NCBI RefSeq assembly: GCF_006345805.1
Contig: NC_042997.1
Location: 132,060,001-132,124,000 of the forward strand
Direction of reading: 5' to 3'
DNA from: Octopus sinensis
Taxonomy: Eukaryota
DNA length: 64,000 bases
Shown in pieces: positions 47,579 to 48,200 of this stretch. The stretch's first letter is position 1. Every line of letters begins with the position of its first letter. The notes beneath the pieces are model-generated. The model did not search any database, had not been told where the DNA came from, and worked only from the letters and a program-made list of their open reading frames with translations. A program made the translations under genes and the position numbers.

Positions 47579-47581
<3 letters not shown>

Positions 47582-48200
47582 AATAGAAATATTAAAATTA
47601 CTAAGTCTCTCTAAAGGAGATTACGGCAGCGTTACTGGAAATTAATAGTTATCGCCATACTTATATGGCAGTCTTATAAATATAAGACTAAAGCTGTCGC
47701 TGATTAGCTCCAAGAGGCCACCGCCTCAAGCTAGCTATTTGACACACAACCTGCGTCCATTATAAACATTGGAGCTAATCAGCGACAGCTTTAGTCTTAT
47801 AAGACTGCCATATAAGTATGGCGATAACTATTAATTCCCAGTAACACTGCCGTAATCTCCTTTAGAGAGACTTAGTAATTTTAATATTTCTATTATTGAA
47901 AACAAGTGGATGTATTCCACTGAAACTAGGTAAATAAATTCTTTGAACAGGGACAGTCAGTAGCGACACCTGCTGGGTCTGACTACGCTGCATTGATAAA
48001 GGGTAAATACCCTGAAACATGTCTGCAGCTGTCTGACTGGCAGGATGAAGCGGCTGACCTCCCCTGTTCGATGGTTTATAATGAACGCAGGTTGTGTGTC
48101 AAATAGCTAGCTTGAGGCGGTGGCCTCTTGGAGCTAATCAGCGACAGCTTTAGTCTTATATTTATAAGACTGCCATATAAGTATGGCGATAACTATTAAT
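47579..48200 (+). mobile_element. Penelope-like pLTR / retrozyme-like repeat (inverted + tandem arrangement)
   Basis: 47579-47767 is the inverted 3' part. 47769-48200 is ~1.2 head-to-tail units with period 359 (ggagctaatc at 47771 and 48130). Contains a hammerhead fold. Confidence 0.75.
47987..48029 (+). ncRNA. Type I hammerhead ribozyme candidate (U3:A8 variant)
   Basis: GCTGCA-TTGATAA-AGGGT(AAAT)ACCCT-GAA-ACATGT-C-TGCAGC; predicted cleavage after C48023. Confidence 0.75.

Follow-up and report, generated by a model that had tools for sequence, protein, structure and literature searches.

How does a short noncoding repeat with a ribozyme motif come to lie, partly doubled and partly inverted, in an octopus genome? 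The repeat lies in a 64,000-nucleotide stretch of Octopus sinensis DNA (NC_042997.1, positions 132,060,001 to 132,124,000), referred to here as the window; all coordinates are those of the window unless another locus is named. A preliminary description, made from the letters alone, had read the locus as a tandem unit of about 360 nt containing a hammerhead with a U3:A8 core, and had suggested a retrozyme mobilized by Penelope-like elements. We followed the unit through the searched genome (2.72 Gb, 13,516 contigs). With a probability of about 0.82, the locus belongs to a dispersed, noncoding 365-base hammerhead unit, probably a non-LTR retrozyme that a Penelope reverse transcriptase-endonuclease copies into TA microsatellites, and one site in the unit is likely the target of an L1-group LINE.

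The insertion occupies positions 47580 to 48200, between two (TA)n tracts that form its left (47531 to 47579) and right (48201 to 48219) flanks, and consists of an inverted stub, one forward unit, and a 73-nt overlap. The inverted partial copy reported before the unit is indeed present (47580 to 47767, minus strand; 99% identity to 48074 to 48200); it is 5' truncated, lacks the hammerhead, and ends at 47580 at what we term the family's long 3' end. The full unit of 359 nt follows on the plus strand (47769 to 48127), and the terminal overlap (48128 to 48200, plus strand), where a second unit begins, runs to the short 3' end and contains two short hairpins (48151 to 48187). The resulting direct repeat pairs 47769 to 47835 with 48128 to 48200 at 92% identity. 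The head-to-tail repeat described earlier is thus real, but it extends over only about 1.2 units and the locus holds a single hammerhead; similarly, its period of 359 applies to the window copy and not to the family (362 to 365), owing to a 6-nt deletion private to the window copy. No ORF of at least 100 amino acids lies inside the unit. The second copy, which had been placed at about 39349 to 39689, proved to be an independent 5'-truncated insertion (39348 to 39689, plus strand; 89 to 91% identity to the main unit) of a second subfamily with another loop 2, with an intact U3:A8 core (39424 to 39430, plus strand) and its long 3' end in (TA)n.

Several other features of the window were recorded in passing. 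Directly left of the insertion, positions 46800 to 47530 may hold a decayed Tc1/mariner fragment, a reading based on what we take to be a motif of that group. A splice-donor-like AGGTAAAT lies at 47926 to 47936, just past the long end; Penelope elements often have an intron near this position. The sequence left of the second copy (39131 to 39347) recurs about 900 bases downstream (40041 to 40200), and a 315-amino-acid open frame on the minus strand (51250 to 52197) resembles the 3' half of a LINE reverse transcriptase. Positions 18096 to 18160 gave a weak Rfam match to the HDV-like drz-agam-1 (26.4 bits, E value of 0.47, under the cutoff of 37). Related 62- to 68-nt tandem repeats at 487 to 715, 9451 to 9718, and 18795 to 18973 probably lie within a common short interspersed element.

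Each part of the hammerhead named in the preliminary description was found where it had been placed. The predicted type I ribozyme (47987 to 48029, plus strand) is identified by its motif parts, covariation, and family matches, and comprises helix I (47987 to 47992 with 48024 to 48029; GCTGCA at 47987 to 47992), the core TTGATAA with U3:A8 (47993 to 47999), helix II (AGGG/CCCT, 48000 to 48003 with 48010 to 48013), GAAA (48014 to 48017), and the palindrome ACATGT (48017 to 48022), followed by the predicted cut at 48023/48024. Four base pairs of the AGGGT/ACCCT stem first drawn for helix II stand; the fifth is private to the window copy (1 of 100 among the matches listed), and the family has a 4-bp helix II with a 6-nt loop. 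The geometry is canonical type I (6-bp helix I, 4-bp helix II), not the minimal form proposed earlier. Rfam did not detect the hammerhead in the window, nor that of a relative with a canonical core, and its silence is therefore no evidence either way.

Is the unusual core a shared decay of a few copies? A hammerhead pattern that allowed any base at positions 3 and 8 had at least 338 exact matches genome-wide and none in a reversed control. U3:A8 was present in 332 of these 338 matches and C3:G8 in none; the remaining six deviated at position 3 (three matches) or position 8 (three), never at both. A family consensus with the canonical CTGATGA, which the preliminary description had named as the mark of decay, was thus not found, and with U3:A8 fixed in this way the unusual core is not a product of decay. 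A 21-mer from elsewhere in the unit matched the genome 623 times, so the family, with units of 360 to 365 nt and a GC content of 0.41 to 0.43, numbers hundreds of copies. A sister subfamily (80 to 85% identical; 1,414 matches) forms arrays in which as many as 10 hammerheads follow one another every 363 nt, and the arrays that we read are bounded by long and short ends; within the family itself, L010 and L062 to L065 have at least two units in succession, each with a complete hammerhead. Three more distant repeats also align to the unit, with scores of 60 to 80 compared to shuffle maxima of 27 to 37. The canonical C3-G8 core is absent from the family and is held by related families. Related repeats at L269, L278, L227 to L233, and L146 had further variants, namely U4C, G8 together with U3, and GUU as the cut triplet, and by eye we saw a hammerhead-like motif in another Penelope family (L088, 2065 to 2102; L298, minus strand, 1593 to 1630) whose core, ATGAATA, reads A:U at 3:8.

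Comparison of 22 natural hammerheads from five related families (15 from the family and its sister, 7 from other repeats) argued for maintenance of the structure. Pairing was kept in 96% of cells, against 24 to 52% in slid controls, and 10 of 13 pairs had changed on both sides; none of 500 shuffles reached this result, which is not a probability because the rows are mutually related and the structure was taken from one of them. The 3:8 pair was UA in 16 hammerheads, CG in 4, and UG in 2, and was never unpaired, in agreement with the earlier proposal that U3:A8 is a compensatory change. The surrounding sequence is predicted to fold into a rod in which helix I is extended and the hammerhead forms the tip (47945 to 48069, plus strand); the fold of 47940 to 48070 had a z score of -6.3, with 0 of 200 shuffles as stable. 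Sliding 120-nt folds gave no strong signal (z scores of 0.4 to -2.9), and the whole rod is needed for it. Folded as circles, seven of seven natural monomers had z scores of -3.5 to -8.6 (30 shuffles each). Helix III cannot close in a monomer (a 2-nt loop of forbidden energy), and ACATGT pairs with itself at -6.0 kcal/mol, so we infer from these folds that the ribozyme would act as a dimer. The window copy, with its one hammerhead, is unable to form such a dimer in cis.

To what machinery do the insertions point? We read 58 insertions at 57 loci, leaving out 9 duplicate and 3 composite loci, and then a second sample of 40 further loci taken from successive 21-mer matches and chosen regardless of the hammerhead. 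The 3' ends fall at two preferred sites about 60 nt apart, which bound a tail at 47837 to 47896 (plus strand) in the window: 41 long, 39 short, and 12 other among the 92 readable ends of the first sample, and 30, 25, and 6 among the 61 of the second. TA-rich sequence flanks 73 of 92 and 44 of 61 of these ends, respectively, and within (TA)n the unit's own target duplications are indistinguishable. Inverted copies with two readable ends had one long and one short end in 27 of 34 cases in the first sample, the remaining seven having an unclassed end, and in 17 of 21 in the second. All 44 inverted copies with both ends classed therefore had one of each and two like ends never occurred, although like ends would be expected in about half of them if each end were chosen independently. 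Copies longer than one unit run back into the same unit and never into other shared sequence. Given that the Penelope tail has been traced to two internal reverse transcription start sites (PMC11167929) and that tandem and inverted copies belong to Penelope insertion anatomy (Craig et al. 2021; PMC8557442), the pattern supports a Penelope-type unit whose two preferred 3' ends may be reverse transcription start sites, the latter by analogy with that work.

No ORF with reverse transcriptase and GIY-YIG domains was contiguous with the unit in any of 109 stretches or present within the window, which indicates that the unit is non-autonomous, and hence likely a parasite of Penelope elements that encodes no protein. 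The preliminary description had allowed that units always flanking such ORFs, with no circular RNA, would be ordinary pLTRs (Penelope terminal repeats); in 6 of the 109 stretches a Penelope fragment did lie nearby, with (TA)n or unrelated sequence between fragment and unit in five cases, the sixth being a 37-residue match on the opposite strand. Of the three refuting conditions named in that description, this one and the decay of the core were checked, and neither spoke against its reading. The proposal of a non-autonomous, Penelope-mobilized unit is therefore supported by the fixed core, the covariation, the Penelope-type ends and inversions, and the lack of a contiguous Penelope ORF, and we regard the retrozyme family with its fixed U3:A8 core as real on these sequence grounds.

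A search for the driver covered the best 150 of 5,029 GIY-YIG candidates and recovered intact reverse transcriptase and GIY-YIG ORFs of 775 to 781 amino acids elsewhere in the genome. Several Penelope families end in a U3:A8 hammerhead, one of them with the same ACATGT. A candidate driver is a young Penelope-like family (L101 to L106; e.g., L104, 1721 to 5050) with several intact copies, (TA)n ends, a 479-amino-acid ORF1, a 781-amino-acid reverse transcriptase and GIY-YIG ORF2, and a minimal U3:A8 hammerhead. BLAST of 68 Penelope loci against the unit returned nothing except adjacent unit copies, and in local alignments of 10 Penelope 3' regions with the unit, 9 scored within their shuffles, and the tenth (L218; 30 against a shuffle maximum of 36) did not exceed its shuffles either. 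Among the sampled families, the sequence shared between unit and Penelope is the hammerhead core and palindrome only. A pair of hammerheads 4.4 kb apart at L061, considered as a carrier of a Penelope ORF, turned out to enclose stacked elements of a different kind.

These stacked elements are 1.7 kb long with a single ORF of 450 amino acids, and the pair at L061 was how we found them. Such ORF1-only elements, labeled half-L1, have at least 150 matches, many with open frames. All 35 distinct 3' ends caught by a motif filter precede a hammerhead-repeat target, after which the hammerhead follows directly in 29 and another element in 6. The ends at L118 and L175 lie off the target site, and distant subfamilies (L178 and L281 to L283) had no readable end; L281 to L283 are tandem arrays of these more distant elements with a 1.7-kb period. 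In the window's family we read 20 junctions at 15 places, all at the equivalent of window positions 47957 to 47973 (plus strand), with duplications of 14 to 17 bp in clean cases; the window copy itself is an empty target site. None of the 20 junctions in the window's own subfamily belonged to a full-length LINE, and full LINEs were located in the sister subfamily and in distant families, at the equivalent target site. A full LINE is stacked there with an ORF1-only element, and its ORF1 is 27% identical (E value of 3e-24) to the ORF1-only protein. Pfam matched nothing in one copy of the ORF1-only protein and a weak zinc knuckle in a second, and the Atlas gave no match.

The LINEs themselves were sampled by hand across identity bands (40 of 138 matches, plus the query). 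In one clade (support 100/100), 22 of 24 sampled members sit at the hammerhead target, 18 directly before the core, 3 before another element, and 1 at the target only, with duplications of 17 to 18 bp; its sister clade had 0 of 17 there, two ends being unread and one lying elsewhere in a hammerhead repeat. The 3' flanks of two sister-clade LINEs, L260 and L258, are a Penelope 3' region and another place in a hammerhead repeat, respectively. Overall, LINE and ORF1-only insertions lie 29 to 36 nt upstream of the hammerheads with 14- to 18-bp duplications. Both ORFs of L238 are intact; the first (493 amino acids) has a zinc knuckle and the second (1,132 amino acids) has APE, reverse transcriptase, and zinc domains, and the nearest solved structure is LINE-1 ORF2. 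One of the two off-target members of the targeting clade lies elsewhere, and the other (L224) abuts the beginning of a complete U2 snRNA sequence (L224 positions 6094 to 6287; Rfam, 183.6 bits). This insertion has a 14-bp duplication, and the LINE's own 5' end retains a remnant of the retrozyme target. We propose that the LINE endonuclease would cut the rod's 5' strand 29 to 36 nt upstream of the core, a position that would leave the downstream hammerhead intact. The LINE and its one-gene derivative are thus likely parasites of the parasite.

Other explanations can be weighed against these observations. The LINE association could be hitchhiking, in which the Penelope machinery amplified, as composites, one or a few insertions that had arisen by chance. 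Some composites do appear to have been copied whole, because four loci (L117, L118, L153, and L267) have one common deletion junction between unit and ORF1-only element, and because at L264 and L265 Penelope-type arms directly adjoin a truncated element. As an account of the whole association, however, hitchhiking is unlikely: two kinds of element occupy the same relative site in five diverged host families, different elements are stacked at one duplication, and one copy moved to the look-alike at the U2 start with a 14-bp duplication. In addition, divergence among hosts exceeds that among their LINEs three- to fourfold (2.95 versus 0.77% and 2.21 versus 0.75%); later, separate insertions would give this result, to which coding constraint on the LINE may contribute. 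The physical linkage at many loci might also suggest that the unit serves the L1-group LINE as its SINE, or that it is satellite DNA carrying a decayed look-alike of a hammerhead. We find this scarcely credible, since the LINE insertions make their 14- to 18-bp duplications and avoid (TA)n, whereas the unit shows inversions and terminates within (TA)n at one or other of two fixed sites, and its core is fixed and covarying. Nor is it at all probable that the copies are 5'-truncated pLTRs of an autonomous Penelope element, itself unfound: the insertion anatomy is that of Penelope ends, and the search had the scope given above, but longer-than-unit copies re-enter only the same unit, and the Penelope neighbors are not contiguous with it.

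Returning to the Penelope-copied retrozyme, its cycle might run as follows. Tandem copies would be transcribed, two hammerheads would pair through ACATGT and excise a monomer, and the monomer would close to a circle. The Penelope protein would then nick (TA)n and begin cDNA synthesis at either of the two internal sites, continuing beyond one unit length, and a start at the other site would yield the inverted arm. We lean toward the monomer circle as the template rather than an uncut multimer. The same element could also do without circular RNA, with uncut tandem transcripts as the template and a hammerhead that is otherwise used or protein dependent, a possibility that we hold to be somewhat doubtful but take seriously. 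It would fit the lack of a 5'-end cluster at the predicted cut site (3 of 63 ends within 5 nt), the 1.5% difference among units of one array, and the finding that cleavage is dispensable for a lizard Penelope in vitro (PMC11167929). Against it, compensatory change maintains the helices and the 3:8 pair, the monomers are stable as folded circles, Penelope-type ends bound arrays that reach 10 units, and an absent 5' cluster is also expected from a circle. Units within a locus were about half as diverged as units between loci (1.5 versus 2.7% and 4.1 versus 8.1%), which fits either template. In assembled contigs from four runs presumed to be RNA, family fragments occurred on both strands, without start or end sites.

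Each ingredient of this system (U3:A8 hammerheads, Penelope-derived retrozymes, and transposon-targeting LINEs) has a precedent; what sets this case apart is the combination, the strict end rule, and a LINE system aimed at a ribozyme repeat. The link between retrozymes and Penelope has so far consisted of co-occurrence and end homology, and an ORF-less unit with the two-start-site signature, together with intact Penelope ORFs, opens the trans-mobilization of a small ribozyme RNA to direct test. In the related families, variation of the core amounts to a natural mutant series for the hammerhead. With the LINEs, ribozyme repeats become a target class, and their intact young ORFs, with targets that vary in sequence and not in position, provide a system for changes in APE endonuclease specificity. 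We speculate, with considerable reserve, that three layers are involved: Penelope drives a radiation of circular retrozymes (with C:G, U:A, and U:G swaps at 3:8 and U4C in one), while a LINE lineage and its ORF1-only satellite track it by recognizing a position set by the ribozyme and not a single sequence, and spread by means of host transcription, ribozyme cuts, and Penelope copying.

In the literature searched, we found no earlier account of this hammerhead family, though Repbase or Dfam names are possible, and no paper on LINEs that target hammerhead or retrozyme repeats, most subscription literature and Repbase lying outside this search. The nearest relatives are the animal non-LTR retrozymes and their circles (Cervera and de la Pena 2020; PMC7229834), which include mussel repeats of 350 to 390 bp; cephalopods are unmentioned in the available text. 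The octopus unit shares with them a type I hammerhead, a noncoding unit of 150 to 450 bp, a GC content below 50% (here, 41 to 43%), tandem copies, and a self-paired circular fold, predicted in our case. It differs in its U3:A8 core and in occurring mostly as dispersed insertions of 0.3 to 3 units with Penelope tails and inversions in (TA)n, and circles have been published for the former, while the octopus unit is known from sequence and predicted folds. A preprint on Xenopus (Li, Clavereau, and Pollet; bioRxiv 10.64898/2026.07.22.740005) argues, as we do, that retrozymes depend on Penelope-like elements, of which it considers them non-autonomous derivatives. Its basis, in the part available, is co-occurrence and pLTR homology, with no mollusc samples; our evidence is instead the insertion signature, pLTR homology not having been found in the families sampled. 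Eight of nine Xenopus retrozymes showed no cleavage, a point against the cycle proposed above.

The core covariation and the palindromic helix III are those of the U3-A8 minimal hammerheads of Schistosoma Cercyon, with about 1,300 matches (Cervera and de la Pena 2014; PMC4209133), but the Cercyon motifs are minimal and lie in autonomous pLTRs, whereas ours have canonical helix sizes in an ORF-less unit. As in described Penelope insertions (PMC8557442; Frangieh et al. 2024, PMC11167929), we see partial tandems, an inverted 5'-truncated arm, a tail at one end, AT-rich targets, and two putative internal start sites, and in the latter study hammerhead cleavage was unnecessary for insertion in vitro. 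The octopus unit departs from the Penelope elements of those reports, as far as their available text goes, in its tail of about 60 nt rather than 30 to 40, its lack of an ORF, and the strict one-long-one-short rule counted here. Finally, the LINEs recall Tx1 elements that target transposons, such as Tx1L in Tx1D and Tx1-Mar in Mariner-N4_AMi, a figure of the same paper also listing unnamed "satellite" targets (Kojima 2015; PMC4494074). The comparison is by features, and the L1-group LINE here could belong to clade Tx1 or L1. In both cases an APE-reverse transcriptase LINE occupies a set position within a different mobile element, copies are stacked in tandem about a single duplication, and a non-autonomous rider is present; unlike the Tx1 cases in the text available, the target in the octopus is a hammerhead retrozyme, held across several diverged families, and the rider carries ORF1 only.
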